DNA of 64,000 nucleotides from Puniceicoccales bacterium (lineage in GTDB: Bacteria > Verrucomicrobiota > Verrucomicrobiia > Opitutales > UBA9783): the NCBI GenBank assembly GCA_031258545.1, contig JAIRMU010000019.1, forward strand, positions 4,716 through 68,715, written 5' to 3'. Position 1 is the first letter of the stretch, and each line of letters starts with the position of its first letter. Made by a program: the position numbers and the translations under genes. The notes below the pieces were generated by a model. That model ran no database searches. It saw only the letters and a list, made by a program, of their open reading frames with translations, and was not told the origin of the DNA. Positions 5,460 to 56,560 of this stretch are shown piece after piece.

Positions 5460-7307
5460 ATGAGGCAGTGGAAAAAAAATGGACTCAACGTATTACCCAT
5501 ACGCCAAGATTTTTCCAGATATAATCTTGAAAAATTACGTTGGGATGCCTTTGCAGGATTAAGCGTTACCCTAATTGTCTTTCCCCAAGCTATGGCATAC
5601 GCCTTACTCGCGGGATTACCCATTGAATACGGACTGTATGGTGCCACGGTGGCTACTTTTACGGCTGCCTTGTTTGCGGGTTCACGCTTCCTCAGTTTAG
5701 GTCCAACCAATGCGACAGCCGTACTCCTCGTCAATTCATTTACGGCGTTAGGGATATCCATAGAAAAAATACCTATCTTTCTACCTACACTTCTTGTACT
5801 CACAGGTAGTTTCTTAATTTTGAGCGCACTCTTTAACGTTGCAAACGTGGTACAGTACGTTTCACGCAGTGTAATTTCCGGATACGTAACTGCGGTTGTC
5901 ATCATAGTAATTGTCAACCAAATACACAATGTTTTTGGATTCGACCTAACGATGATCCAGGACAACGCTTGCATGTTCGTAGATACGTGCGTAGCCACCT
6001 GGCATGGATTATCAAGTATTGAAAGCTCTTCCGTATTTATCAGTTTAGTAACCTTGTACATCCATCAATTTATAAAAACAAAATTCCCCAAATCTCCCGT
6101 TGCATTCACCATCATTGCCCTAGCGTGCCTTACGTACATTTTGCAAAAGATAATGGCCATCAACGTTCAAGTTTTGACCCCCATCGATGTGAGTGCATGG
6201 CGCACATCGTGGACTGGTTTTAGTTTGGACAACTTAAATCTTATGGCGGACTCGGCACTAATACTAAGTTTTATGTGCCTTGTGGACAGCACCATTGTAT
6301 TGAAAACTTTATCATCGCGCATCGGCCAAAAGGCGAACGTTAACCAAATGGCTTTCGGCCTAGGCCTTGCCAATATTTTTTGCGGTCTTTTTTCAGGCAT
6401 GCCCGTTTCTGCATCTTTGGTACGATCGTCTACAAATTATGCCAGTGGTGCCAGAACTTCACTTGCAAGCCTATTCTGTGGCTGCTTTTGTCTCCTGTGC
6501 ATCGCTTGTTTGGGACCATTTTTTAATTACATCCCCAAGGCGGGTCTTGCAACGCTCATTATTATTTTAGCCTGTAGCCTTTTGGATAAACACACGCTAA
6601 AAGTAGTTATTACATCGACTCGATCCGATGCATGCGTGTTTTTTGTAACCCTTGTGGCCGCCTTCCTATTCCCTCTCAGTACGGCCATTTACATAGGGGT
6701 ATTCTTGTCCATTGCTCTGTTCTTAAAAAAAGCGACTGTGCCCGCATTCTTCGAATGTATCTACGACGAAAACAACGAGATGAGCGAAATTGACCCGCAT
6801 ACTTCCCTCTTCAAACAATTAGAAATTACAATCATACATATGGAAGGTAACTTATTTTTTGCTTCTTCAGAAATCTTTCGGGATCAAATGAGGATGATAA
6901 GCGAAAGATCTGCTTTAAAAATTATCATCCTTAAAATGCGCAACGTGATGCACATCGACGCAACTTGCATTCTCGCCTTGGAAGAATTGCTGTATTACAT
7001 GTACCTGAACAAACGTGTCTTGATTTTAAGTGAAGTTAACAAATACGTATTCAAAGCGCTTCAGCGTTCCAGGCTAACCGAATTCATAGGATTAGAAAAT
7101 ATTTTTACCGATAAACGCAGCCAATCCAATTTGTCAACAGCCCTGGCTTTAAAACACGCACAACACATTATAGGGGATAAAAATTTCTATGTCCGTGTTC
7201 TGGTGGTCAACAATAAAAAGAAACGCATTCAAACAACCGCAGAGATAGGTTCAGAACCGCAGCAAAAATCGTCGCCCCAAAGCGTTCAAGATGCCGACAA
7301 ACTGTAA
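5460..7307 (+). CDS. sulP: SulP family anion permease with C-terminal STAS domain
   Basis: DAFAGLSVTLIVFPQAMAYALLAGLPIEYGLY, GPTNA, and STAS LFFASSE motif; alternative GTG start at 5436. Confidence 0.92.
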   Translation: MRQWKKNGLNVLPIRQDFSRYNLEKLRWDAFAGLSVTLIVFPQAMAYALLAGLPIEYGLYGATVATFTAALFAGSRFLSLGPTNATAVLLVNSFTALGISIEKIPIFLPTLLVLTGSFLILSALFNVANVVQYVSRSVISGYVTAVVIIVIVNQIHNVFGFDLTMIQDNACMFVDTCVATWHGLSSIESSSVFISLVTLYIHQFIKTKFPKSPVAFTIIALACLTYILQKIMAINVQVLTPIDVSAWRTSWTGFSLDNLNLMADSALILSFMCLVDSTIVLKTLSSRIGQKANVNQMAFGLGLANIFCGLFSGMPVSASLVRSSTNYASGARTSLASLFCGCFCLLCIACLGPFFNYIPKAGLATLIIILACSLLDKHTLKVVITSTRSDACVFFVTLVAAFLFPLSTAIYIGVFLSIALFLKKATVPAFFECIYDENNEMSEIDPHTSLFKQLEITIIHMEGNLFFASSEIFRDQMRMISERSALKIIILKMRNVMHIDATCILALEELLYYMYLNKRVLILSEVNKYVFKALQRSRLTEFIGLENIFTDKRSQSNLSTALALKHAQHIIGDKNFYVRVLVVNNKKKRIQTTAEIGSEPQQKSSPQSVQDADKL

Positions 7308-8762: not shown

Positions 8763-10808
8763 ATGAAAAAAAAGGTAAACAGCACTGATAAGAATAATCT
8801 TCAACAGAAATCGTTCAAGCCCAAAAGTTTTCTGGTATGGGGCATCATTTTGTTATTTTTGTTACTCTTAAATTCTCTGGCATTGACACCGGAAGGTAGA
8901 CTTAATCTCACCGTATCACAAGTATTAACGATGGCTCGGCAGCACCTCATCGAAAATGGTGAAATTCAGTCGGATGCCACCGGAGGCCATCAATGGTATA
9001 AAATGAAAGGTCGTTTGAAAAATGATGTTGAAAAAATTTACAGCATTTTACAGGACGACGCCACTAACATTTGGGCCAAACAAATGAAAGGCCAGGGAAC
9101 GCGCAACGCCGTTTCGCTGCCCCTTCATTTCGAAGCTACGGGACGTCTAACCGACGCTCGATTTAACGAGCTTTTGGACGGCAATTTAGGATTTCAATTT
9201 AAAGAACGTCCCGCAAGTACATTGTTATCTTCCATACTCATTAATGTCCTCCCTTTTTTGATTATTTTAGGTGTTTTGTATCTTTTATTCATGCGACAAG
9301 TTCGCATGGCGGGAAAAGGAGCCATGGGATTTGGACGTAGTCGGGCACGATTATTGCAGGAAGATAAGAAGAAAGTTACGTTCAAAGACGTGGCCGGGTG
9401 CGATGAAGCTAAAGAAGAGGTAAAAGAAATTGTCGACTTCCTCAAAAATCCAAAAAAATTCCAAGAAATTGGGGGACGTGTACCCAAAGGATGTTTAATG
9501 GTTGGAGCCCCGGGTACAGGTAAAACACTTTTGGCCAAAGCAATTGCCGGAGAAGCCGATGTACCTTTCTTCAGCATTAGCGGGTCCGATTTTGTGGAAA
9601 TGTTTGTGGGGGTTGGGGCATCACGCGTAAGAGATATGTTCGAACAGGGGAAAAAGAGTGCACCTTGCCTCATTTTCATCGACGAAATTGATGCCGTTGG
9701 ACGTCAACGCGGTGCTGGACTTGGTGGTGGCAATGATGAACGCGAGCAAACATTGAACGCACTGTTGGTGGAAATGGATGGATTTGAATCGCGAGAAGGG
9801 ATCATTTTGATGGCTGCCACCAATCGACCGGACGTTTTAGACAGTGCACTTTTGCGTCCCGGAAGATTTGATCGACAAATTGTTTTGGACCTACCGGATA
9901 TTCATGGTCGCGAGCAAATTCTTCAGGTGCACGCTAAAAAAATAAAGTTGAACCCATCGGTCGATTTGAAAGTAGTAGCCCGCAACACGTCTGGATATTC
10001 GGGTGCCGACCTCGAAAATCTTTTAAACGAAGGTGCGCTTTTGGCAGCTCGTCAATCTAAAAAAGCGGTAGAGCCCATTGATTTGGAAGAAGCGCGCGAT
10101 AAAATCTCTTTTGGCCGAGAGCGTAAAAAGTTGATGGATGATAAAGACAAGCGTATCACCGCTTACCACGAGGCAGGTCACGCCATCGTACAAGGCGTCA
10201 TTGATGATGGCTTGCTGCCCATACACAAAGTAACGATTGTTCCCCGAGGACAAAGTTTAGGGAGCACCATGATGTTACCTTCAAAAGACATTTTAAATTA
10301 CTCCAAGCAACAAGCGCTCAATCAAATTTGTTGTTCCATGGGAGGACGTATTGCGGAAGAACTTATTTTCAAAGAACAAACGAGTGGCGCTTCCGCCGAT
10401 ATTCGTTCCGCCACCAAATTAGCTCGCAAAATGGTTTGTGATTGGGGTATGAGCGATATGGGCCCTTTGGCTTTTGGCGACAATCAGGATCACATCTTTT
10501 TGGGACGTGAAATTGCACGTGAACAAAATTACAGCGAGCAAACCGCACAAACCATTGATGCCACCGTTGCAAAAATCGTACGCTCTCAATACGATCGAGC
10601 CGTTGAGATTTTAACGGGAAAACAAAATTGTCTGGAATCTTTGGCGCAAGCTTTGCTCCAGTATGAAACATTGGAAGGTAAATATGTATACGAAATATTG
10701 GAACACGGAGTCCTTGTTTCAGAAGTTGTGATGCCTGAGGCGGTTAAGGTAGAATCCGTACCTGACATATCCATCGTTCCTGCGTTGAAACCTGAAGGAG
10801 CCGTTTAA
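8763..10808 (+). CDS. ftsH: ATP-dependent zinc metalloprotease FtsH
   Basis: Two TM helices, [21 protein letters not shown] motif, HEAGH zinc motif. Confidence 0.98.
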
Positions 10809-10813
10809 CCATC

Positions 10814-11389
10814 GTGTCTTCCGTTCAAATACATGCATATGGCTCACCGACACTTCGCAAAAAAGCGGTGCCCATAAAACAATTCGACAAACGTCTCCAA
10901 GAACAAGTGGATCGCATGCTGCAAGCAATGTACATCGCAAACGGGATTGGACTTGCTGCCCCCCAAATGGGAGAAACACGGCAAGTCGTCGTCATCGATT
11001 TGCAAATGGAACCCAATAGCGAAACGGTTACTTTGGATGGAAAGCTTATTCCCCTACAATTGGTTCAGCCATTGGTGTTAATCAATCCCTCCTTCGATCC
11101 CTTAAATGATATTTTAATGCTAGGTGAGGAAGGCTGCCTTTCCATTCCCAATGTTCACGGACACGTCAACCGACACTTAAAAATTTTTGTAAAATACCAA
11201 GATATTGAGGGAACACCTCACGAACTTACCTGCGAACACTTGTTGGCACGTTGTATCCAACATGAAGTGGATCACCTAAATGGCATTTTATTTGTGGATC
11301 GAATCTCAAAAACGGAACGCAAAGAAAATGCAGCTATTTTAAAAGCGCTGAAAGCTCGTGGAAGTCCTGTCGAATACGAAACAACGTAA
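10814..11389 (+). CDS. def: Peptide deformylase
   Basis: GIGLAAPQ, EGCLS, QHEVDHLNG. Confidence 0.97.
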   Translation: MSSVQIHAYGSPTLRKKAVPIKQFDKRLQEQVDRMLQAMYIANGIGLAAPQMGETRQVVVIDLQMEPNSETVTLDGKLIPLQLVQPLVLINPSFDPLNDILMLGEEGCLSIPNVHGHVNRHLKIFVKYQDIEGTPHELTCEHLLARCIQHEVDHLNGILFVDRISKTERKENAAILKALKARGSPVEYETT

Positions 11390-11608: not shown

Positions 11609-12184
11609 ATGGGTGCGATTGTCATCAGTTTTTCGGTAGGTTATTGCTTGGGAGCAATTCCATTTGGATTTTTAATTTCCAAAGCTTATGGCGTTCATAT
11701 TTTTCAAGTAGGCAGTGGCAATCCAGGTGCCACCAACGTGTTGAGAATTCTGGGCAAAAAAGTGGGCTACAGCGTATTTTTACTGGATGCTTGCAAGGGC
11801 TTCGTGGCCGTATTTTGCGGCACATTACTGAATATGCCCTACGTAACGCTTTTAGGTGCTTTATTAGGGCACAGTTTTTCTTTTTTTATCCACTTTAAAG
11901 GCGGCAAAGGGGTTGCCACACTCATTGGCGGTTTAGCATTTTTAATACCTATTCCATTGATACTGGGCTTGATTGTGTGGTTGAGTGTTTTCAAATTAAC
12001 CCACTACGTATCCCTAGCCTCCATCATCTTTGTGATCACTTTACCGTGTTTTAATTTTTTGTGCAATGAGGCGCCCGTACAACAAAAGCATACCTTACCC
12101 CTTATGGTATTTGCAGGTATTGTTGTGTGGTTGCATAGGACTAACTTGAAACGTCTTTGGCTAGGTAAAGAACACCGTTTTTAA
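11609..12184 (+). CDS. plsY: Glycerol-3-phosphate acyltransferase PlsY
   Basis: GAIPFG, GSGNPGATNVLR, DACKG, GH.FS.F..FKGGKGVAT, H..N.KRL..G.E. Confidence 0.95.
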   Translation: MGAIVISFSVGYCLGAIPFGFLISKAYGVHIFQVGSGNPGATNVLRILGKKVGYSVFLLDACKGFVAVFCGTLLNMPYVTLLGALLGHSFSFFIHFKGGKGVATLIGGLAFLIPIPLILGLIVWLSVFKLTHYVSLASIIFVITLPCFNFLCNEAPVQQKHTLPLMVFAGIVVWLHRTNLKRLWLGKEHRF

Positions 12185-12192
12185 CGACTATC

Positions 12193-12906
12193 ATGGCTCT
12201 CATTGTACAAAAATTTGGTGGTAGCGTATTAAACAGTGAACGGAAATTTGCAAAAATAGCGCATTCCATTGCGTATTTACATCGACAAGGGCATCAACTT
12301 GTGGTGGTTGTGTCTGCACTCAGAGGCATGACCGATCGTCTGCTACGTAAAGCCCAACGCATAGGTCCTCATATACCCAAAGGGCAAAGCTTGGATTTAC
12401 TTCTATCTCTCGGCGAACAACAGTCGTGTGCGTTCCTAGGTCTCGCGCTCAACGCTTGTGGTATACCGATAAACGTAAAAAGTGGAGCCCTCGTAGGCCT
12501 CCGAAGAACAAGAAAAAACCAATGGCAAGTGGATGTGGCAAATTATTTGAAGGCTCTCGAAAAAAATGTCGTGGTCGTCAGTGGTTTTCAGGCCTTGGAT
12601 GAACATAATAATTTAATCACTTTGGAACGTGGAGGGTCCGACTTAACTGCCCTTATTTTAACGCACGCCCTAAAGGCAGATCGTTGTCAGTTGATAAAAG
12701 ATGTTCCTGGTATCGCCACAGTAAATCCTCAATGGTCCACCCAAAAGAGGACTTTTCCCCCCAAACTAAGCTTGAATGATCTGCTCACAATTTCTAAAAA
12801 TGGTTCGCATATCGTTCAAGTACAGGCAATTCAATTTGCACAACAATATCACGTTAACTTTGAAGTCACCGATTTGCACAATCATGGCACGTACGTACAC
12901 GCCTAA
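12193..12906 (+). CDS. Aspartate kinase catalytic domain only (no ACT domains)
   Basis: MALIVQKFGGS, VVVVSA, LLSLGEQ.S, TL.RGGSD.TA, KADRC...DV.G; ends at 237 aa. Confidence 0.8.
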   Translation: MALIVQKFGGSVLNSERKFAKIAHSIAYLHRQGHQLVVVVSALRGMTDRLLRKAQRIGPHIPKGQSLDLLLSLGEQQSCAFLGLALNACGIPINVKSGALVGLRRTRKNQWQVDVANYLKALEKNVVVVSGFQALDEHNNLITLERGGSDLTALILTHALKADRCQLIKDVPGIATVNPQWSTQKRTFPPKLSLNDLLTISKNGSHIVQVQAIQFAQQYHVNFEVTDLHNHGTYVHA

Positions 12907-13033
12907 ATTGGCATTCTATCTAAAAATATTCCATCTAAAAAAATGCTAAAAAACACCCCTCTCTCCACCAACCATCTTCACATTTTACAGAGAAACAAAC
13001 ATGGCGAACACCAAAACATTCAAAACAAGTTTA

Positions 13034-13119
13034 TGGTGCTCGGGACGGGACTTGAACCCGTACGACCTTACGGTCAGAGGATTTTAAGTCCTCAGCGTCT
13101 ACCATTCCGCCACCCAAGC
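13034..13119 (-). tRNA. tRNA-Leu(UAA)
   Basis: Reverse complement folds as a cloverleaf: acceptor GCTTGGG/CCCGAGC, anticodon arm GAGGA-CTTAAAA-TCCTC, long variable arm, GGTTCAAGTCC T-arm, encoded CCA. Confidence 0.97.
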
Positions 13120-13239
13120 AACACAGTGAACAGAAAAATGAAAAAACACCTTATTTTCAACGTAAAAAAGCAACTATTTTGTAAGATTTTGATGCATTTA
13201 AAATATTGTCTTTCGTAAAATTTTATTTGTAATAAAAAA

Positions 13240-14655
13240 ATGTGTTTTCTATTGTACCTGGGTAGAGGTTTTACATTATGTGTAGGCATAGGTTGCTATT
13301 TTTCCATAGTCCCCGTATCCATAGGCTGGGTAGGATTAACAACATGTGTGTGTCTACGCTACTGTTTTGATCAAAAATTTAAGTCAACATTTCACAATTT
13401 TCACAAAAGAATATTTTTTTGGAAACCCGCATGTTGCATCGTTTTCGTGGCACTTTTGGGTATTACATATTCTAATGCCTCATTAGCGGTGAGCATTTAC
13501 GGATTTAGAAAATATGCCTATTTTCTATTATTCGTCTTCTTATTACCCTACTTTTACCACGATAAAAAATCTGCATCTCTATTATTAGGCAGCTTTTCCC
13601 TCGGCAGTTTGTTATGTTTTTTTTACAGCGTTTTGTTTCACAGATATAGGTTCTATATGAATCCAATTGCCGTAAGCTTATTTTTTGCCCTTGTGCTCCT
13701 TTGGACTCACTTGACTTTGTATCACACACCTAAACACCTAATCATTCGTATTGGTTTTATAGGAGTGCTGGGTTACCATCTACTTTATATCAATACGGAA
13801 AAAACAGGATTTGTTGTGTTTGTCATCGGATACAGCTTAATGATACTTGTTTTTCTAAAAAAATATTTTCTGCGCTCACTTTTATCCGCACTGCTGGTTG
13901 GCTCAGTTGCCGCTTGCGCTTACAAAAAACCCACTGTTTTATTAACACGTACTCAAAGATTCGCACACACACAGTATAACGCAATACTTACTTGGGTAAA
14001 ACCCTTACACAACTCTTATACACTACGCTGTTCAAGAGTAATCCAGTTATTTAAGCAAAAATTTATGGGGCATAAACCCTACCCTTTCAGACAATCTTTC
14101 GCCCATCATCTCCATAGGTATATGGAAATAAAACCCTTTAAGCAGCTTCCATCACTCTCACAATTAAATTACATGCACCTAGGCTGCTGGGGAATTTCAT
14201 TTGACGCCTCCAAACAATTTGACGCCTCCACTTCAGAACGCTTAGAAATGGCGCGACAATGCTTCACCTTAGTCAAGCAAAAACCACTCATAGGTCATGG
14301 GACCTGCGCTTTTGGACAATCACTGATACACCATAACTGGAATTACATCGGTGAAACAGTTGCTTTTGAACAACGTGCTCAACCCCATAACGAATGGTTA
14401 CATATTTACGTACAGTGGGGATTATTGGGAATGATTGCATTTACGTATTGGTTTGGTTACAGTTTTTATTATGGCTGGAAACACAGACATGAATTTTACG
14501 GCCAAGCACTCATTACTTTAAATGGCGCTTATCTCATTGCTGGCTGTTGTGATTCCGTATTTTTTGCAGCCAGTTATAGACTCGCATACATATTCCTGTT
14601 GTGTGCAATCGTGGCAAAACTCGCAGAAAAAGAGCCGAAAGAGGGTAAGGAGTAA
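13240..14655 (+). CDS. O-antigen ligase / O-oligosaccharyltransferase family (Wzy_C) membrane protein
   Basis: Multi-TM protein; S.SERLEMARQCFTLVKQKPLIGHG..AF and PHNEWLHIYVQWGLLG motifs. Confidence 0.8.
   Translation: MCFLLYLGRGFTLCVGIGCYFSIVPVSIGWVGLTTCVCLRYCFDQKFKSTFHNFHKRIFFWKPACCIVFVALLGITYSNASLAVSIYGFRKYAYFLLFVFLLPYFYHDKKSASLLLGSFSLGSLLCFFYSVLFHRYRFYMNPIAVSLFFALVLLWTHLTLYHTPKHLIIRIGFIGVLGYHLLYINTEKTGFVVFVIGYSLMILVFLKKYFLRSLLSALLVGSVAACAYKKPTVLLTRTQRFAHTQYNAILTWVKPLHNSYTLRCSRVIQLFKQKFMGHKPYPFRQSFAHHLHRYMEIKPFKQLPSLSQLNYMHLGCWGISFDASKQFDASTSERLEMARQCFTLVKQKPLIGHGTCAFGQSLIHHNWNYIGETVAFEQRAQPHNEWLHIYVQWGLLGMIAFTYWFGYSFYYGWKHRHEFYGQALITLNGAYLIAGCCDSVFFAASYRLAYIFLLCAIVAKLAEKEPKEGKE
14199..14230 (+). 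repeat. In-frame 18-nt-period tandem duplication
   Basis: ATTTGACGCCTCCA at 14199-14212 and 14217-14230 (FDASKQ-FDASTS). Confidence 0.85.
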
Positions 14656-16615: not shown

Positions 16616-17030
16616 CCTTTAATTTAAGTATGCTTATAACTATAAAATGCTAATTTTTTAAAAATTAAGTATTCACTTAAAGATCAACAAATAATATCCA
16701 CAACGCATGTTAACATTTGCAAAATAGAGCAACATTGCTTGCAGAACACCTCTTTGTGCGTTTAATGACGATCCCCATAAATGGAGTGTATCCTTGCAGG
16801 TTCTGACTTTTTAAGAGTTTACTTTTTGCACCTTAGAGGCTTTGTATAGGCAGAAGACGCTGGGGGTTTTTAACACAAAGGTCAACGCAAGGGCAAATGT
16901 GTGTATGCGATAAAGCTCATGTTGGTTTTTAATTTCACATGCTTTCGGGTTTTTAAATTCCAACTGCCGTTTCCATCGTTTGTATTTGGCAAAAAGTAAA
17001 TTTTCGGACCTGGGGTAACTTTTTCAAACG

Positions 17031-18365
17031 TCACCTTTTCTTCAATGTAAGTGCGAAAAATATGCCTCCCAAGATAGATGTTACGACGAATGAAATGTAG
17101 GCGGCACTCCAACCCCAATACTTGGCAATCGTGGGAATACCAATACCTACACATCCACCGGCCAAATAACCTACCGTGCCCGTTAAGCCTGCAGCGGCGG
17201 CAGCGGCTTTTTTGGAACCAAATTCGGCTCCCGATAATCCACCCAACGTTTGAGGTCCATAAATTAAAAATCCGGTAACAGCCCAAAACATTGTATCCAC
17301 AAATGGACTTGCCATCCATGCATTCCACAAAGGATCTTGCACAACACTGGTAAGAATCCAATAAATTCCAATGACAACACCCAATAAAATCATCATGTAA
17401 GCACCGCAAACGCCTCTTCGACTCGGCATGTATTTGTCCGTAAACCAACCCACAAATAAACCGCCCAACAATCCCCCTGCCTCTAAAACGGCCACCTTGC
17501 AACCGGCTACCATAACACCACTTTGTTGAGTTTGTGCAATGATGGTGGGCCCCCAACAAAAGTATCCCATTCTGACAAAATAAACAAAAAAGTTAGCAAC
17601 GCAAACAATCCACAAACGGTAATTAAATAAAATATGCTCTTTAAAAACGGTAAAAAAACTCTCACGCACGTCCGATGGAGGAGCATCCTCTTCAACTTGC
17701 AAACCTTCATAAACTTCTACAGGTGGCAATCCCAGAGATTCGGGTGTATCTCTTAAACGATCCCACAACCAAATTGCGATGGCAAAGCAAATGACGGACG
17801 GAACAATAAAAAGATAACGCCAGGAATAACATTCCAACAACCAAGCACCGCCCAATAAAATGCAGATGCTGCCTATTTGATGCGAAGCGTTTACAATCCC
17901 CCATCGCATGCCCAATTCACGTGGCCCAAACCACTGGGTTAGAGTTCTGGCGACAGAGGGCCAGCCCATCGATTGGAAACAAGCGCTTATGGCCAACATC
18001 AAACCGAACCAAAATGCCGAATGACAGCACCCTGCAATCAAACTGACAAATGCAGCACACGCCAAACCAACAGGCATAAAGTAACGGGCGTTGGAACGGT
18101 CACAAATAGCTCCGCTTACAAATTTAAAAATACCATAAATAATGGAAAAAACAGAAAATCCCCAACCCACCGCCTCGGCGCTAAAAGGGAATTTTGGAGA
18201 CGTTTTGGCCATGGAAAAATTCTGCCTTACGAGGTAAAAAGAAGCGTATCCTACGATGAGGCCATACGTAAGCCTACGACGCCAATATGCATATTCCCGA
18301 CTCACTCCATCTGCCATTTTATAATTATTTTCGGTTGCTTCGTAAGGACGTACACTTTGCGACAT
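17031..18365 (-). CDS. Organophosphate:Pi antiporter (MFS, GlpT/UhpT/UhpC family)
   Basis: GYASFYLVRQN, YGIFKFVSGAICDRSNARYF, FQSMGW, WGIVNASH.IG, RDTPESLGLPP.E, LIYGPQ.L.G. Confidence 0.9.
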   Translation of the reverse strand: MSQSVRPYEATENNYKMADGVSREYAYWRRRLTYGLIVGYASFYLVRQNFSMAKTSPKFPFSAEAVGWGFSVFSIIYGIFKFVSGAICDRSNARYFMPVGLACAAFVSLIAGCCHSAFWFGLMLAISACFQSMGWPSVARTLTQWFGPRELGMRWGIVNASHQIGSICILLGGAWLLECYSWRYLFIVPSVICFAIAIWLWDRLRDTPESLGLPPVEVYEGLQVEEDAPPSDVRESFFTVFKEHILFNYRLWIVCVANFFVYFVRMGYFCWGPTIIAQTQQSGVMVAGCKVAVLEAGGLLGGLFVGWFTDKYMPSRRGVCGAYMMILLGVVIGIYWILTSVVQDPLWNAWMASPFVDTMFWAVTGFLIYGPQTLGGLSGAEFGSKKAAAAAAGLTGTVGYLAGGCVGIGIPTIAKYWGWSAAYISFVVTSILGGIFFALTLKKR

Positions 18366-21604: not shown

Positions 21605-23020
21605 ATGAAGATTTATTTAATGGGAATCTGTGGTACTGCCATGGCCCACGTAGCCTTGTTGCTTAAAGAATTAGGGCATTCAATTGTAGGCAGCGATACA
21701 CAATGCTTTGATCCCATTGCCAGTCTACTTGCAAAAAATCAGATAGAAACTCATGTAGGATTTGATGTGCAGCGATTACAAACATTAAAACCCGATTGCA
21801 TCATTGTGGGGAATGTCATCTCTCGCGGAAATCCAGAAATTGAATATCTGCTCAACAAACCCATTTGTCCCCTCTACTCTTTTCCACAGTTTTTAGAACA
21901 ATACATTATTCCGCGGCGTCCAACTTTTGTGGTAACGGGAACTCACGGCAAAACTACCACAACCACCCTATTAACCTACCTACTAAAGCAGTTTTGCAAT
22001 CCAGGTTGCCTGATTGGAGGATTACCCAATAATTTTGAACATGGAGCCTCTTTAGGCGACGAAAAAGCTCCATTCGTTTTGGAAGGTGACGAATACGATA
22101 CGGCATTTTTTGACAAAAAAAGTAAATTTTTTCACTATTGGCCGCATACGCTCATCATCAACAACATCGCATTTGACCACGCGGACATTTTTGACGATCT
22201 CAAGTCCATTCAGCGTACATTTTACCAATTGACACGTATGGTACCGTCACAGGGGCACATCGTTATGAATGGCGACGACCCCAATGTGAGGGCATTGCTT
22301 CCATGCGATTGGACGCATACGCATCGCGTAGGATTCGAAAATCAAAATGACTGGCAAATTAAAAATTTTACAACAACCTCCCATGGGAGTCAGTTCGACT
22401 TATACAAATTAGAGCAATGCGTTTTTGCCAATATTTGCCTCCCTTTATTGGGTCGATTTAACGCGCACAATGCCGCCTTGGCAATCGTTGCCTGCTACGT
22501 CAATCAATACAGCTCCATCGACGTGCAACGCCTCACACTTTTTGCGGGTGTTCGCCGGCGCCAATCCGTGCTCTTCGAGTCCGAACAATTGACAATACTG
22601 GAAGATTTCGCACACCACCCCACCGCCATACAATTCATGCTGGAAACACTCAAAGCACATTACCCACATCACCACTTGATTGCCTGCTTTGAACCCGCCT
22701 GTAACACCAGCGCATCCACGTGGTTTTCGCAACAATCTTACCCAACTTTTTATCGCGCCGACGAAGTTTGGCTTGCCCCACGAAAAACAAACATTTACTG
22801 CGACAAGTTTGTTCAACCTTTAATCCCCATGGATTCTTCTCAAGTCAGACAAACGCTGCAACAGAACAGGATTAAAGTAAACACATTCGATTCACTCGAT
22901 GAACTTATTGCCTGCATTGAAGGATTGACGCCCGAAGTACCCACACTTTTATGTTGCTTTTCAAATGGCCGATTATCCGCTTTATTGGCCGACATACAAC
23001 GAAAAAAGCAAAAGCATTAA
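21605..23020 (+). CDS. mpl: UDP-MurNAc:L-Ala-gamma-D-Glu-mDAP ligase (murein peptide ligase)
   Basis: GICGTAM, VTGTHGKTTT, EGDEYDTAFFDK.SKF.HY.P, DHADIF, DFAHHPTAI. Confidence 0.88.
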   Translation: MKIYLMGICGTAMAHVALLLKELGHSIVGSDTQCFDPIASLLAKNQIETHVGFDVQRLQTLKPDCIIVGNVISRGNPEIEYLLNKPICPLYSFPQFLEQYIIPRRPTFVVTGTHGKTTTTTLLTYLLKQFCNPGCLIGGLPNNFEHGASLGDEKAPFVLEGDEYDTAFFDKKSKFFHYWPHTLIINNIAFDHADIFDDLKSIQRTFYQLTRMVPSQGHIVMNGDDPNVRALLPCDWTHTHRVGFENQNDWQIKNFTTTSHGSQFDLYKLEQCVFANICLPLLGRFNAHNAALAIVACYVNQYSSIDVQRLTLFAGVRRRQSVLFESEQLTILEDFAHHPTAIQFMLETLKAHYPHHHLIACFEPACNTSASTWFSQQSYPTFYRADEVWLAPRKTNIYCDKFVQPLIPMDSSQVRQTLQQNRIKVNTFDSLDELIACIEGLTPEVPTLLCCFSNGRLSALLADIQRKKQKH

Positions 23021-23031
23021 CCTTCATCGTC

Positions 23032-23967
23032 ATGGATAACGACACTTCACAGTCAACGGAATTGTATAATTCTGGAGAATCGTTTTTCCGAGAACTATTT
23101 GTAAAATGTGGCGAAGATCCCAACCGACAAGGACTCCTAAAAACACCCCACAGAGTCATCCAAAGTTTTCTCGAATTGACACAAGGGTACCGTCAATCGG
23201 CACAAGAAATTCTTAACGATGCATTGTTTGATTGCGATAACGATGCCCCCGTCTACATTCAAAAAATTCCATTTTATTCCCTCTGTGAACATCATTTATT
23301 ACCTTTTTTCGGGCACTGCGATATTACCTACTTACCCAACAAAAAAGTCATCGGTTTGTCGAAAATACATCGTATTATAGACATGTTTGCCAGAAGACTT
23401 CAAATCCAAGAACGTCTCACGTACCAAGTCGCCAATACATTGTTCGAACTTACGCAAGCGCAAGGGGTACGTGTCGAAATGCAAGCAGAACATCTATGCA
23501 TATCCATGCGCGGAACGCACAAAATAAATTCTACTACTTTTACGTCCAGCTGTTGTGGACAACCTTGCCCTACACGCAATCCAACAAACACGGACTTATG
23601 GCCTACAATGGTACTCCAATTTCACACCAAAGATTTTCCCATTTCACTCGGATGTTTTCCCAAAGAATTTCAGGAGTTTACACCCGTACAAATTCAAGTC
23701 GAGGTAAAATTTCTAACACCACCGCAAGGATGCAAAAGTGACCGCATCGAAGATACCATTTGTTACGATCACTTATCTCAGTTACTATATGCGTGCTGCT
23801 TCAAAAAACACTTTAACCTCATCGAACATTGCGGCTATGAAGCCTACAGCACTTTAAAAAAATTCTTCAAACTCAAAAGCATATCTCACCTCCTACGCTT
23901 AAAGTTAACAAAAAAGTTAGTGCACGAAGACCTGCAGCAGAGCGCTTTTCAGATAGGCGACTTTTAA
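23032..23967 (+). CDS. folE: GTP cyclohydrolase I fused to dihydroneopterin aldolase (FolE-FolB)
   Basis: GEDPNRQGLLKTP.RV, SLCEHHLLPF.G, GLSK, RRLQIQERLT, EHLC..MRG; then a ~120-aa FolB-like domain (LGC..KE, DTICYD, NLIEH, C-terminal K); ATG 23032 follows the mpl stop. Confidence 0.85.
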   Translation: MDNDTSQSTELYNSGESFFRELFVKCGEDPNRQGLLKTPHRVIQSFLELTQGYRQSAQEILNDALFDCDNDAPVYIQKIPFYSLCEHHLLPFFGHCDITYLPNKKVIGLSKIHRIIDMFARRLQIQERLTYQVANTLFELTQAQGVRVEMQAEHLCISMRGTHKINSTTFTSSCCGQPCPTRNPTNTDLWPTMVLQFHTKDFPISLGCFPKEFQEFTPVQIQVEVKFLTPPQGCKSDRIEDTICYDHLSQLLYACCFKKHFNLIEHCGYEAYSTLKKFFKLKSISHLLRLKLTKKLVHEDLQQSAFQIGDF

Positions 23968-33527: not shown

Positions 33528-33932
33528 TTAGCAACCGAACATATGATCTTCTGAATGATCGGGATGATTCGGGCAGTCCGGCCTGTGATTTCCTCCTGAC
33601 TGACCACAATGGGGACATCTATAGCCAGGATTATTCGGGCAATGCGGTATATGTTCTCTTCCGAATTCTGTGTCCATCATGGGACAATAGGGACACTTAT
33701 AGTTAGGATCATTCTGGCAATCCGGCCTATGAGCGCCTCCTGACAGTTCACAATGAGGACACTTATAGTTAGGGCAATCCGGCTTATGATCGTCTGATGT
33801 AGAAGCAAAACAATAGGGACAAGGACGATCGAGATTATTCGGGCAAACACCTGCATCATGCCCTTCTTGACCACAATACGAACACATTACGGCCATTCCC
33901 GGCAGTGTTGTCATTAATTTAAATGCAATCAA
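33528..33932 (-). CDS. Cys/His-rich protein with five CCHC zinc-knuckle-like repeats
   Basis: CSYCGQEGHDAGVC (C-x2-C-x4-H-x4-C) plus four CP[YH]C-x6-10-H-x3-C units; has its own promoter and terminator; true start uncertain (see findings). Confidence 0.75.
   Translation of the reverse strand: MIAFKLMTTLPGMAVMCSYCGQEGHDAGVCPNNLDRPCPYCFASTSDDHKPDCPNYKCPHCELSGGAHRPDCQNDPNYKCPYCPMMDTEFGREHIPHCPNNPGYRCPHCGQSGGNHRPDCPNHPDHSEDHMFGC
33691..33773. repeat. Exact 17-nt direct repeat within the zinc-knuckle gene
   Basis: GGACACTTATAGTTAGG at 33691-33707 and 33757-33773 (66-nt period; encodes PNYKCP). Confidence 0.85.
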
Positions 33933-39946: not shown

Positions 39947-40459
39947 TTACCAACGAATACGAACGCACCCATGTTGGCCGGCTAAACGCTCCTTTACCTT
40001 GTAATCTCTTTGGCCACTACCTCCATCTCCCAGCTGACCTAACATGTCAACATGTTGGCCGGTACAATGACTCGCACAAGCTCTTGTTGCCGGTACGCCC
40101 ATCGCCCCTCCACCGCAATTAATTTCCAAAGAATGAATATGGACCGTCGTTGCCTCACCTGCAGTTAACTCCGAGGCTTGCCCAACATAAATGGAAACAA
40201 TACCTCCACTTTGTACGCCCTCGATTTTCTCCGTCCTAAAAACACCCGAACCTCCACCGTTTCCACTGACGTTGAAATCAGCCAAATGCTGTACATCGAG
40301 ATAGATTCTCATGTTTTGCTGCGATTTTGTCCTCGCATCCATCGTTGATATCCAACTGTTTTCATTTATCCGATCAGCCCCATGCTCCACAACGTTATGA
40401 GAAAAAGAAACACCATATGTATAAACATAGCTCTTATCCCTTTCATCATTGTATATCAT
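39947..40459 (-). CDS. C-terminal part of a split glycine-rich-domain protein
   Basis: GNGGGSG..R......G..VSIYVG and GDGGSG...GQHGCVRIRW; lies in the -1 frame relative to the upstream ORF. Confidence 0.55.
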   Translation of the reverse strand: MIYNDERDKSYVYTYGVSFSHNVVEHGADRINENSWISTMDARTKSQQNMRIYLDVQHLADFNVSGNGGGSGVFRTEKIEGVQSGGIVSIYVGQASELTAGEATTVHIHSLEINCGGGAMGVPATRACASHCTGQHVDMLGQLGDGGSGQRDYKVKERLAGQHGCVRIRW

Positions 40460-40461
40460 AT

Positions 40462-41853
40462 TTAAAAAAAATCTCTTGTTTCTTTATCTTTAAGTTCTAC
40501 GCATTGATTAAATCGAGGTAGGGTATGAGGGTTATCAGTTCTATAAATTAAATGTGCATTGCTGGTCGCAGGATACTTACTCATACGGCCGGTAACATTG
40601 GTGACGCGCGCCGGACCTGTCACACGTATGTGCGTTTTACTCCATATCCATCCTCTCCACGAATGGTATTCTAGGTTAAGATCACTCGTCTGCTCCACCG
40701 GGGCACCCCAATCTCGGTAAGACAAAGCGGGACTACCGCTTCCGCCCGCACCGATCGCTTCAATCGTAATGGTATGTACGCCTTCCGGAATCATCCAAAA
40801 ATGCTTCCCGGGTTGATCAAAAACGATCTGCCCATGATTTTGTTCGGCAACCATATCGGTTACCTCACCCACATCCTCATCCATTGAAATTTTAAGATCT
40901 TCCAACAAATGATCGTATTCTTCACTGTATTTGTGCAATTTCTCTAGTTCGCACGCAACATTTCGCTCGCGCATGGAAACGTACAACCAAAGCGTAAAAA
41001 AAGAATCTACATCGATGCAAAAATGCCTGTCTTTGCAATTACACCAAGTGACATGGGGAGAAAACAAATTTAAATAAGGTTCGCAGGCAGGGTCCAAATG
41101 CTGCATTAATTTTACAACGTTACTCGCCACATTATCAAATTCTGATAACCGTCTAAAGGCATCCCACGCCGCATGACTTATTTTAAGTTTGTCCGAAAAC
41201 CTGCAAGGAACGAGGATAAAAGTGGAAGGTTTACAGGTTAAAGGAGAAGACCACGTATCGGTTGGATGCAAAGATAAATCACCGCACTTATCCACGAGTA
41301 AATCGTTAAAAAAATGTGTCGTATAACTCAAAATATTTTGGAAATCGGCTGTAGACAATACTGAAAGCGCTTCCATTAAATGCTGTCGATGCCCCCGTAT
41401 CGGTTCAATAAAATACCGATTCCAAATATCGTGCACTTTTTGGACATCTTTTTGCGCAATATCCAATGGAAGACCCACTAAACAATCCTCGTTATCCTGA
41501 TAGGCATAGTGTTGTAGCACGCAGTCCGGTTGCTTCATGAGATGCGGTAACGTGTGCTGAAAATAGGGATATCCCCACACATAATTGCCAATACTACCAC
41601 ACACCCAATAACTCCCAAACTGGATGGCAAATGGAGGAACGGATTTATATTTTCGGTACAAATTTAAAACATGCGGCAATTCTTCTGCAGAAAAAGATTT
41701 CCTACAAAAAATTTCTGCAGGAATATACAAACAACCTTTATCTTTTTGATTATTTGAATCTTTTAAAACAAAAGTCGGACAATGGGGAAATGCAAACAGC
41801 ATTTCGGTAGCCAAACACAAAGCTACAGTAAAATATTTACTGTATTTGAACAT
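40462..41853 (-). CDS. Orphan protein with signal-peptide-like N-terminus; N-terminal part of a split glycine-rich-domain protein
   Basis: MFKYSKYFTVALCLATEMLFA leader; FDQPGKHFWMIPEGVHTITIEAIGAGGSG near the C-terminus; stop falls within a T8 run. Confidence 0.6.
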   Translation of the reverse strand: MFKYSKYFTVALCLATEMLFAFPHCPTFVLKDSNNQKDKGCLYIPAEIFCRKSFSAEELPHVLNLYRKYKSVPPFAIQFGSYWVCGSIGNYVWGYPYFQHTLPHLMKQPDCVLQHYAYQDNEDCLVGLPLDIAQKDVQKVHDIWNRYFIEPIRGHRQHLMEALSVLSTADFQNILSYTTHFFNDLLVDKCGDLSLHPTDTWSSPLTCKPSTFILVPCRFSDKLKISHAAWDAFRRLSEFDNVASNVVKLMQHLDPACEPYLNLFSPHVTWCNCKDRHFCIDVDSFFTLWLYVSMRERNVACELEKLHKYSEEYDHLLEDLKISMDEDVGEVTDMVAEQNHGQIVFDQPGKHFWMIPEGVHTITIEAIGAGGSGSPALSYRDWGAPVEQTSDLNLEYHSWRGWIWSKTHIRVTGPARVTNVTGRMSKYPATSNAHLIYRTDNPHTLPRFNQCVELKDKETRDFF

Positions 41854-41989
41854 GCAGAATCATCTTCTTTTAATAAAAAACTTTTTGTCAACTCCTAAAG
41901 TGATTAAAAAATAGCCTTGTACACGCACTTATTTACCGCATATATGGTAACTATGTTATTTTAATAATCAAATACAGGTAAATTAGCAT

Positions 41990-42962: not shown

Positions 42963-43190
42963 CTAAAAACTTAACGACGTATTTTTTGTGGAACACTTAC
43001 GACAACATTGCTCTTCACAATTATCCACATTAAAATATATTTCGCCACAGTGCCTACAATAAAAAACGTGGCGCAATTTTAATGACGCATAGCCCTTGAG
43101 AACACGTCTTTCAAACCTTGTCTGCCAAACGACAAATAAAATAATCGTCGCACAATAGAAAAGGCTTACATAGTACTCCAAAGATCTCAT
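42963..43190 (-). CDS. Small membrane-anchored zinc-ribbon protein
   Basis: N-terminal hydrophobic helix, then FYCRHCGEIY...CCRKCSTKN (CxxC...CxxC). Confidence 0.6.
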   Translation of the reverse strand: MRSLEYYVSLFYCATIILFVVWQTRFERRVLKGYASLKLRHVFYCRHCGEIYFNVDNCEEQCCRKCSTKNTSLSF

Positions 43191-45411: not shown

Positions 45412-45927
45412 TTAAACTCTTCGTCTCTTCGGAGGACGACACCCATTATGAGGAACAGGGGTAACATCCCTAATGCTCAAAACAGTTAATCCCAACGTTT
45501 GCAATGTTCTAATTGCAGAATCACGTCCCATACCGGGGCCTTTAACTTCAATCACAACTTCCCTTAATCCATGTCCCATGGCAATTTTAGCAGCTTCCGT
45601 GGTTACCACCTGCGCCGCGTAAGCCGTCGATTTCCGAGATCCTTTGAAATTACAACGTCCGGCACTTGACCAAGCCAACACATTCCCATGCGTATCAGAA
45701 AATGAAACTTTTGTGTTGTTAAAAGAAGCCAGAATATGACAAACCCCCACCGTAATATTCTTGCTCCCCTTGGCACGCTTAATCTTCAAACCATCTTCTA
45801 ATCCTTCCTGGACCAACAGAGAACTTGCACTTTCTTTTTCAACGACACCTTTTGTATCCTTATCGGCAACCGCAACAGACTCTACCTCTACTTTTTTTTC
45901 AGTTTTTAAATTTTCATCCATAAACAT
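45412..45927 (-). CDS. rpsK: 30S ribosomal protein S11 (with N-terminal extension)
   Basis: [44 protein letters not shown]. Confidence 0.97.
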
Positions 45928-55936: not shown

Positions 55937-56560
55937 TCAACCAATTCGATCCAAAAATGAGAGTAATGCCCGCTCGGTAACCAATATGTTGGTATAGCGG
56001 CACAAATCCAACGCATTCAAAGAGGACGTGTCAACCGTATACACACGATCTAAATTACGCGCCGATAGCAAAACATTTTTTTCGAATTCGTTATCCACCA
56101 ACAAAATTTTGCCTTTAACCATCCAATTATGCAACCACTGTACCATTAAAGAAGTTTTAGGGCAATCAAACGGTCTCAAACACTCCAAAATCGACAACTT
56201 ACCTTCGGAAACCGTATCAAACAAAGCGCGTCGCAAAGCCAATTTTTTTTCTTTTTTATTGATGGAAACCGAAAAATCGCGCGGTTTTGGACCAAAAACA
56301 ACACCACCTCCTCGCCAAATTGGACTTCTTTTTTCACCTTGACGCGCCATGCCGGTCCCCTTTTGCCGATAAGGCTTTTTACCCGATCCTTGCACATCGC
56401 CTCGCGTTTTTGTACACGCGTTCCCTTGCCGCAAATTGGATTGATAAGCCAATATAACATCTTTCAATGTTTGGAGACCACGGTCCTCTTCAAATGTAGG
56501 AATATTATACTCCCGTTCTTCTCGAAAAACACCATCAACACCGTAAAAATTAACCTTCAT
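55937..56560 (-). CDS. rplD: 50S ribosomal protein L4
   Basis: RQG...TK.R.DV.GSGKKP.RQKGTG.AR.G..RSP.WRGGG..FGP.PR. Confidence 0.97.
   Translation of the reverse strand: MKVNFYGVDGVFREEREYNIPTFEEDRGLQTLKDVILAYQSNLRQGNACTKTRGDVQGSGKKPYRQKGTGMARQGEKRSPIWRGGGVVFGPKPRDFSVSINKKEKKLALRRALFDTVSEGKLSILECLRPFDCPKTSLMVQWLHNWMVKGKILLVDNEFEKNVLLSARNLDRVYTVDTSSLNALDLCRYTNILVTERALLSFLDRIG

Follow-up and report, generated by a model that had tools for sequence, protein, structure and literature searches.

In programmed –1 ribosomal frameshifting of the dnaX and insertion-sequence (IS) type, a slippery heptamer is combined with an overlapping –1 frame that encodes a C-terminal extension. In slippage-rescued genes, described in Buchnera, in Blochmannia and for tssM of Citrobacter rodentium (PMC4256274), an A/T homopolymer lies at the frameshift and a transcript one nucleotide longer restores the protein. 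In homopolymer-frameshift pseudogenes of reduced or host-associated genomes, a single-base A/T contraction accompanies intact sister orthologues, eroding accessory neighbours and intact housekeeping genes. Here we describe a gene that shares features with all three, located at 39947–41853 on the minus strand of a 64,000-nt stretch of a Puniceicoccales bacterium genome (assembly GCA_031258545.1, contig JAIRMU010000019.1, positions 4,716 to 68,715; hereinafter the window). The gene encodes a glycine-rich, probably exported protein and is divided into two open reading frames (ORFs) at a run of eight T residues (T8). On balance, the split is probably a young loss-of-function frameshift allele, T9 having shrunk to T8; the accessory locus that holds it, between kpsF and pheT, appears to be decaying across the clade.

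Unlike dnaX and IS elements, the gene lacks a stimulatory hairpin or pseudoknot, a clear internal Shine-Dalgarno (SD) element and conservation of the site, and its short product, which amounts to a truncated domain, is not a functional isoform. Unlike slippage-rescued genes, its tract is only 8 nt long and is absent from relatives, which do not share the frameshift. Unlike the homopolymer-frameshift pseudogenes, it shows no second lesion or measurable relaxation and would be at most a very young pseudogene.

One gene divided at a new T run

The upstream ORF (463 amino acids (aa); 40462–41853, minus strand) ends in ...AGA GAT TTT TTT TAA, its premature TAA (40462–40464) being created by the frameshift. 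The T8 run of the coding strand (40464–40471, A8 on the plus strand), the site of the 1-nt deficit, is read in the zero frame as GA-U UUU UUU-UAA, placing a U UUU UUU heptamer directly against the stop. The downstream ORF (170 aa; 39947–40459, minus strand) lies in the –1 frame and encodes the rest of the glycine-rich domain; its ATG (40457–40459), 2 nt past the stop, is the old internal Met (the M of ...LNM...), a codon conserved in all orthologues. A productive shift is confined to the 22 nt at 40462–40483 because the –1 frame is closed by a TAA at 40484–40486 (minus strand). A T9 allele or a –1 shift would yield a fusion of 463 + 2 + 170 = 635 aa reading ...RDFFLNMIYNDER..., with a junction region ...KETRDFFLNMIYNDER... 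and a junction-spanning peptide DFFLNMIYNDER. The original prediction, made from the DNA letters alone, had described the ORF ends, the T8 run, the TAA of the –1 frame, the 22-nt shift window and the peptide motifs, all of which proved correct on re-reading.

We searched the fused 635-aa sequence against 5.8 billion protein clusters and obtained matches confined to the clade's own proteins. They comprise the 463-aa upstream ORF as the window's own product (P0002, 100% identical), a single ORF of 632 aa from a metagenome-assembled genome (MAG) named 'Puniceicoccales bacterium' (P0001, 85% identical at 100% coverage) and a partial sequence of 394 aa that crosses the junction in one frame (P0003). 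Genome-collection and cluster look-ups revealed further intact copies at loci L006 (635 aa) and L005 (642 aa) and broken copies at L007 and L008. The Puniceicoccales MAG orthologues are single ORFs of 632–642 aa, 80–86% identical to the fusion and colinear with it over both ORFs. Since the orthologues are single ORFs, the comparison identifies the two window ORFs as one orthologous gene, recently short of one T. The search for full-length homologues that the original prediction had proposed thus supports its claim of one ~635-aa gene split at T8, yielding single ORFs of 632, 635 and 642 aa and none of the consistent two-gene arrangement that it had named as contrary evidence.

The DNA alignment of the window with its orthologues agrees, containing a single 1-nt gap that falls exactly at the T run. 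The window junction reads GAT TTT TTT T-AA ATA TG. The corresponding sequences are AAT TTT GTA TTA AAC ATG in L004, AAT TTT GTG TTA AAT ATG in L006, AAT TTT GTG TTA AAC ATG in L008, GAT TTT GTG TAC AAC ATG in L005, GAT TTT GTG TTA AGT ATG in L007 and GAT TTT GTG TTC AAT ATG in L003. All six orthologous sequences therefore carry TTTTGTRT(T/A) at the junction, with no T run and no shift needed there, which makes the homopolymer new in the window lineage. The simplest path would begin with a synonymous change of the ancestral GTR codon (junction TTT GTR TTA, F-V-L) to GTT, followed by GTT to TTT (Val to Phe), which would create an in-frame T9 (TTT TTT TTA) as an intermediate; replication slippage would then contract T9 to T8, with loss of the frame. 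Translation would from then on end at residue 463, within the glycine-rich domain, leaving the presumably exported product without the second core half of that domain, and the 170-aa remainder could start at the old internal ATG but would carry no export signal.

The T8 run by itself is statistically unremarkable, and what exceeds chance is the single-ORF homology. The window holds 12 matches (10 runs) to A/T runs of at least 8, compared with about 40 expected from dinucleotide-preserving shuffles, and several of its runs of 8–9 T or A lie in frame within intact ORFs. Over the whole window, A/T runs of at least 8 are about three-fold depleted relative to dinucleotide shuffles; other T8 or A8 runs lie at 13617–13624, 45892–45899 and 56243–56250.

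A true T9 genome with an intact 635-aa gene, misread in sequencing or assembly, would account for the fully intact and apparently constrained downstream ORF, and among assembly indels none is more common than a homopolymer miscounted by 1 nt. However, an independent assembly of run SRR14710907, a Logan contig, matches the window at 100% identity over 7392 nt and also has T8, making an assembler artefact unlikely; with the MEGAHIT-style k119 names carried by the related MAG contigs, T8 comes from two different assemblers. An 8-nt run is also well inside short-read accuracy, the other 8–9 T/A runs of the window sit in frame in intact ORFs, and the indels that sister MAGs carry in this gene are outside homopolymers. 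In each of the five related loci, tblastn recovers about 18 flanking housekeeping genes as single, full-length matches in one frame, indicating that the indels of the clade are not random sequencing noise. Ten window ORFs resembling splits were scanned with Pfam, and nine proved to be ordinary complete genes (among them Mur ligase, folE-folB fusion, FabV, UDG, AhpC, PGK, MFS transporter and PlsY genes) without a frameshift; the window ORF at 16882–17559 (minus strand) gave no Pfam match and overlaps the MFS gene. Taken together, an error at T8 is quite improbable.

The same scan covered an overlap of 70 nt, in different frames, between the Mur-ligase gene (21605–23020, plus strand) and the folE-folB (GTP cyclohydrolase I–dihydroneopterin aldolase) gene (22951–23967, plus strand). 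It was rejected as a split gene, both members having complete Pfam domain sets, and the true start of the folE-folB gene may lie further downstream.

The glycine-rich domain and the position of the break

The N-terminus of the protein, MFKYSKYFTVALCLATEMLFAFP..., is near-invariant in the clade and modelled as a helix at residues 5–21. This hydrophobic helix is probably a signal peptide or membrane anchor and the protein probably exported, in keeping with the 'secreted-type' character that it had been assigned from sequence alone. Residues 1–337 are Cys-rich and clade-specific: when 1.8 billion representatives were searched exhaustively with a profile, relatives came from the clade alone, and AlphaFold2 (AF2) gave no confident fold (predicted local distance difference test (pLDDT) score below 50).

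The glycine-rich domain is shared between the two ORFs. The upstream ORF holds its first part (residues ~340–463; 40462–40836), and the downstream ORF holds the second core half, GNGGGSG ... GDGGSG ... GCVRIRW. In the AF2 model, two confident halves (residues 340–395 and 512–632, pLDDT ~90) surround a poorly modelled insert of ~115 residues, and the break point at residue 463 falls within this low-confidence insert. Residues 340–632 of the intact P0001 are colinear with residues 145–431 of P0004, a distant single-chain relative (31% identity, E = 4e-21). The alignment and the model both argue that residues 340–632 are one domain, and support the earlier proposal that the ORFs carry complementary halves of it. 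Because these residues would act as one domain, truncation at 463 would remove half of the domain core.

A Foldseek search of BFVD returned 49 matches at E <= 1e-3, the best (1.1e-7) being named a glycine-rich domain-containing protein. Many of the matches are mycobacteriophage minor tail proteins, and others are glycine-rich-domain proteins of phages and giant viruses. In the PDB, the fold matches the cyanophage Pam3 fibre (7ypx_A, probability 0.99, E = 7e-3) and the Bxb1 tail tip (9d93_Pa, probability 0.99), and weakly the glycine-rich domain of ALK. These similarities to phage glycine-rich, fibre and minor-tail proteins uphold the predicted phage-fibre-type character of the domain. In contrast to phage fibre genes, the gene is chromosomal and lies among housekeeping genes, and no other phage-like genes were recognised among the neighbouring genes called or scanned.

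The assignment to a named family is less direct. The predicted link to Pfam Gly_rich_2 (PF21722) holds for relatives found by the profile search (P0004, P0011, P0013 and P0022), which pass the 24.3-bit gathering threshold with 25.6–32.4 bits, but not for the fused protein, which scores 17.1 bits (E = 0.0058), or for the separate window ORFs, which have no Pfam or NCBIfam match. The intact or partial orthologues P0001, P0024, P0027 and P0003 likewise remain under the threshold (12.9–19.1 bits). The clade protein is thus tied to Gly_rich_2 by intermediate member sequences and predicted fold similarity, not by direct score. It has the start motif F..PG...W.vPeGV..i.ie.iGaGGsG, the GxGGxG motifs and the C-terminal G.V.I.W/Y strand of Gly_rich_2-type proteins, the comparison set comprising phage minor tail and fibre proteins (7ypx), giant-virus collagen-like proteins and, more distantly, the glycine-rich domain of ALK/LTK; unlike these, its core is split by the ~115-residue insert and preceded by the clade-only 337-residue region.

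In four distant relatives (P0005, P0010, P0013 and P0020), a helical region is preceded by a prepilin-type N-terminal methylation motif; proteins resembling type IV pilins, or pseudopilins, may serve to display the glycine-rich domain in those bacteria. A PDB sequence search with a mixed alignment returned type IV pilins only, a lead that was rejected as due to these prepilin N-termini. The window protein has no prepilin motif, and the clade has its own unique N-terminal region.

Erosion of the kpsF–pheT locus and selection on the broken gene

All copies of the gene share the context rpsD-rpoA-rplQ-(75-aa ORF)-kpsF-[methyltransferase]-[glycine-rich gene]-pheT-gatC-gatA-gatB, and two sister copies are broken at other positions. 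In L007 (isolate Ncb351_bin56), the GAGGSG codons have lost 2 nt (GCAGGCGG to GC--GCGG; ~11101–11116 in the coordinates of that locus), leaving a product of 389 aa. In L008 (JGI 3300042596), 1 nt is missing at about codon 397 (TATCATTC to TACC-TTC; ~11183–11196 in its own locus), leaving products of 416 and 224 aa. Each lesion is followed by an open, apparently constrained frame, and Logan assemblies also list the two truncated proteins. Slippage could not rescue either copy because neither deletion sits in a repeat.

The neighbouring FkbM-type methyltransferase gene (PF05050), which lies between the glycine-rich gene and kpsF, is divergent from the former and may be functionally linked to its protein. 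It is intact in two of six lineages (278 aa; 9022–10001 in L006 and 9011–10001 in L008), broken in L005 (176 aa; 5730–6704) and in L007 (192 aa; 9005–10001) and partly deleted in L004 (9258–10001). In the window it is absent, only a 136-nt spacer (41854–41989) separating the glycine-rich gene from kpsF, compared with 0.74–1.0 kb in relatives. The pattern of lesions indicates that the methyltransferase gene has decayed independently in each lineage and, more broadly, that several lineages of the clade are independently eroding at the kpsF–pheT accessory locus.

Locus L004 shows a further change. An insertion of ~2.3 kb, not present in the other loci, lies between the glycine-rich gene and pheT and contains at least six tblastn segments (12044–14030) that are 31–69% identical to a 134-aa ORF of the window. 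In the window this ORF (33528–33932, minus strand) lies between gatB and an M16 peptidase gene, has no Pfam match and evolves fast, with ~50% identity to its orthologues compared with ~90% for its neighbours. Downstream of the segment array, the final 19 codons of the glycine-rich gene occur again (13672–13728 in L004, 79% identical, E = 1e-6), suggesting a duplication of its 3′ end by the insertion. At the other end of the shared context, the 75-aa ORF between rplQ and kpsF (42963–43190 in the window, minus strand) is hydrophobic in its N-terminal half, bears a C-terminal CxxC...CxxC pattern and is conserved at 84–89% in all five related loci, for which reason it is probably a real small zinc-ribbon membrane protein.

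It is because the gene sits in this eroding locus that we take the split for a pseudogene at an early stage, or an allele that has lost its function. Like a frameshift pseudogene, it has intact single-ORF orthologues and a lesion that interrupts a conserved domain.

Several observations weigh against this reading. Selection on the downstream piece is not significantly relaxed by any of three measures. First, pairwise Nei–Gojobori (NG86) ratios of nonsynonymous to synonymous substitution rates (dN/dS) are 0.12–0.16 upstream of the break and 0.12–0.30 downstream, window pairs included. Second, amino-acid changes unique to the window lineage number 16 of 461 upstream and 16 of 169 downstream, giving a ratio of 2.7 that does not differ significantly (Fisher p = 0.27) from the 1.1–1.95 of other lineages. 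Third, terminal-branch counts of nonsynonymous to synonymous changes in the window are 21:30 before the lesion and 21:16 after it, compared with 24:20 for three intact lineages pooled over the same downstream region. The DNA alignment contains no further stops or indels downstream of the window break. By terminal-branch counts, L007 and L008 are likewise without relaxation after their lesions (29:34 and 9:9, respectively, with 36:42 for three intact lineages pooled over the region after the L007 lesion). For plain decay, it is a little surprising that six lineages hold three lesions, each single and apparently young; a downstream part still in use, or a gene switched on and off repeatedly, would match this pattern as well. 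In addition, the perfect slippery heptamer by the stop and the ATG 2 nt away make some expression of both parts mechanistically possible.

If the window allele is indeed one of loss of function, the break is recent, as the downstream piece lacks relaxed selection and a second lesion. Were the downstream part now free of selection, its lack of any new stop would limit the age of the lesion (95% bound) to less than ~0.13 substitutions per site. For the terminal branch, synonymous divergence (dS) is estimated from pairwise values at roughly 0.25–0.37, which is compatible with a recent event on it. The substitution data fit 'recent' but do not separate 'recent and dead' from 'still used'.

Recoding, slippage and separate translation at the T8 tract

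An evolved programmed –1 ribosomal frameshift that produces the 463-aa and 635-aa isoforms in a fixed ratio would be the most elaborate use of the site. The zero frame does contain a perfect slippery heptamer of the X XXY YYZ type (U UUU UUU) directly before the stop, and the 22-nt shift window is narrow. The other elements of such a signal are missing: the 136 nt from the site contain no significant 3′ stimulatory RNA structure (z = –0.85; 34 of 200 shuffles fold at least as well), the first predicted helix begins ~14 nt after the heptamer, and the 20 nt upstream show by eye no clear Shine-Dalgarno-like stimulator, an upstream AAGAGA giving a weak anti-SD match of –3.1 kcal/mol. Neither the shift site nor the two-frame arrangement is conserved, since the six orthologous sequences continue in one frame at the junction, and the short product stops in mid-domain. 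A T run restricted to one lineage, the lack of RNA structure and sister breaks at non-slippery sites thus leave unsupported the two-isoform design that the original prediction had entertained, and we consider programmed frameshifting extremely unlikely. A scan for promoters and terminators around the gene gave nothing better than shuffles.

Separate translation of the two pieces, by termination and reinitiation at UAA-AU-AUG, would make the split a functional gene fission yielding two proteins or a non-covalent complex. Most gene starts in the window have weak or no Shine-Dalgarno complementarity and A/U-rich leaders, and the leader of the downstream ORF, A/U-rich with a weak Shine-Dalgarno match, is typical among them, making reinitiation plausible. 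The stop and the conserved ATG are only 2 nt apart, the break lies within the low-confidence insert between the core halves, and the downstream piece shows no relaxation. On the other hand, the domain core is built from both halves, and these would end up in different compartments, the export helix being on the upstream piece only; a working split protein is disfavoured because the 170-aa product would carry no export signal. No orthologue or distant relative that has both halves is split at that point, and restarting at the L007 and L008 lesions, which lie within or just after the first core half, would cost the domain core strands. Fission is, in our judgement, very unlikely.

Slippage at the tract deserves more weight. 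Slippage-rescued frameshifted genes have been described with A/T tracts of about 9–10 nt or more. The endosymbiont rescues of Tamas et al. 2008 reportedly involve poly(A) tracts longer than 8. Single-base transcript insertions cluster in A/T runs and rise exponentially with run length, the measured rates extending to runs of 9 nt in E. coli and of 11 nt in Buchnera (PMC5574713). Given this rise, some U9 mRNA and full-length protein would be expected from the window gene, unselected and probably in small amounts; RNA-polymerase or ribosome slippage at U8 would then provide a low leak of the full-length product.

A stronger form of this scenario, in which T8/T9 is a reversible on/off switch or slippage rescue keeps the gene under selection, is unlikely, though several observations lean its way. 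The lesion lies in an A/T homopolymer with the heptamer adjoining the stop, the downstream part lacks relaxation and a second lesion, and transcript insertions climb exponentially with A/T-run length (PMC5574713). Exported or surface-exposed proteins, to which the product probably belongs, are often phase-variable, and recurrent loss-of-function alleles in the clade would fit fluctuating selection. The evidence to the contrary is that the tract occurs in none of the six orthologous sequences, the L007 and L008 alleles at non-repeat sites cannot revert by switching, T8 is short for efficient slippage and no stimulatory RNA structure is present. Moreover, a collection of 15 billion proteins contains no T9 allele of the species, and the Logan contig is unbroken across the site. 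Metagenome contigs, scanned with the P0001 protein and with a DNA pattern of variable T-run length, yielded no further alleles of the species, which is known from one assembly lineage in the collections searched.

A wider scenario of recurrent on/off selection would fit the slightly odd finding that three lineages each have exactly one lesion and no sign of relaxed constraint. It would make the window tract a newborn contingency locus in the gene of an exported protein, reversible through replication slippage or leaky through slippage of RNA polymerase or ribosome; we regard this as distinctly unlikely. Should T8/T9 heterogeneity prove true, the site would be an example of a contingency tract at birth.

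For annotation, the favoured reading of a young loss-of-function allele means that the two 'hypothetical proteins' of 463 and 170 aa are best joined into a single entry marked as a frameshifted gene, and not counted as a recoding signal; a textbook-like slippery heptamer by a stop can arise by chance when a new homopolymer contracts. In termite guts, Verrucomicrobia of the 'Nucleococcus cluster' live as endosymbionts of protists and have genomes of ~1 Mb (PMC8204192). The clade described here consists of termite-gut-type Puniceicoccales MAGs and is a candidate for membership of that cluster. The piecemeal, apparently independent losses at the kpsF–pheT locus would offer a small view of ongoing genome reduction in a symbiont clade.

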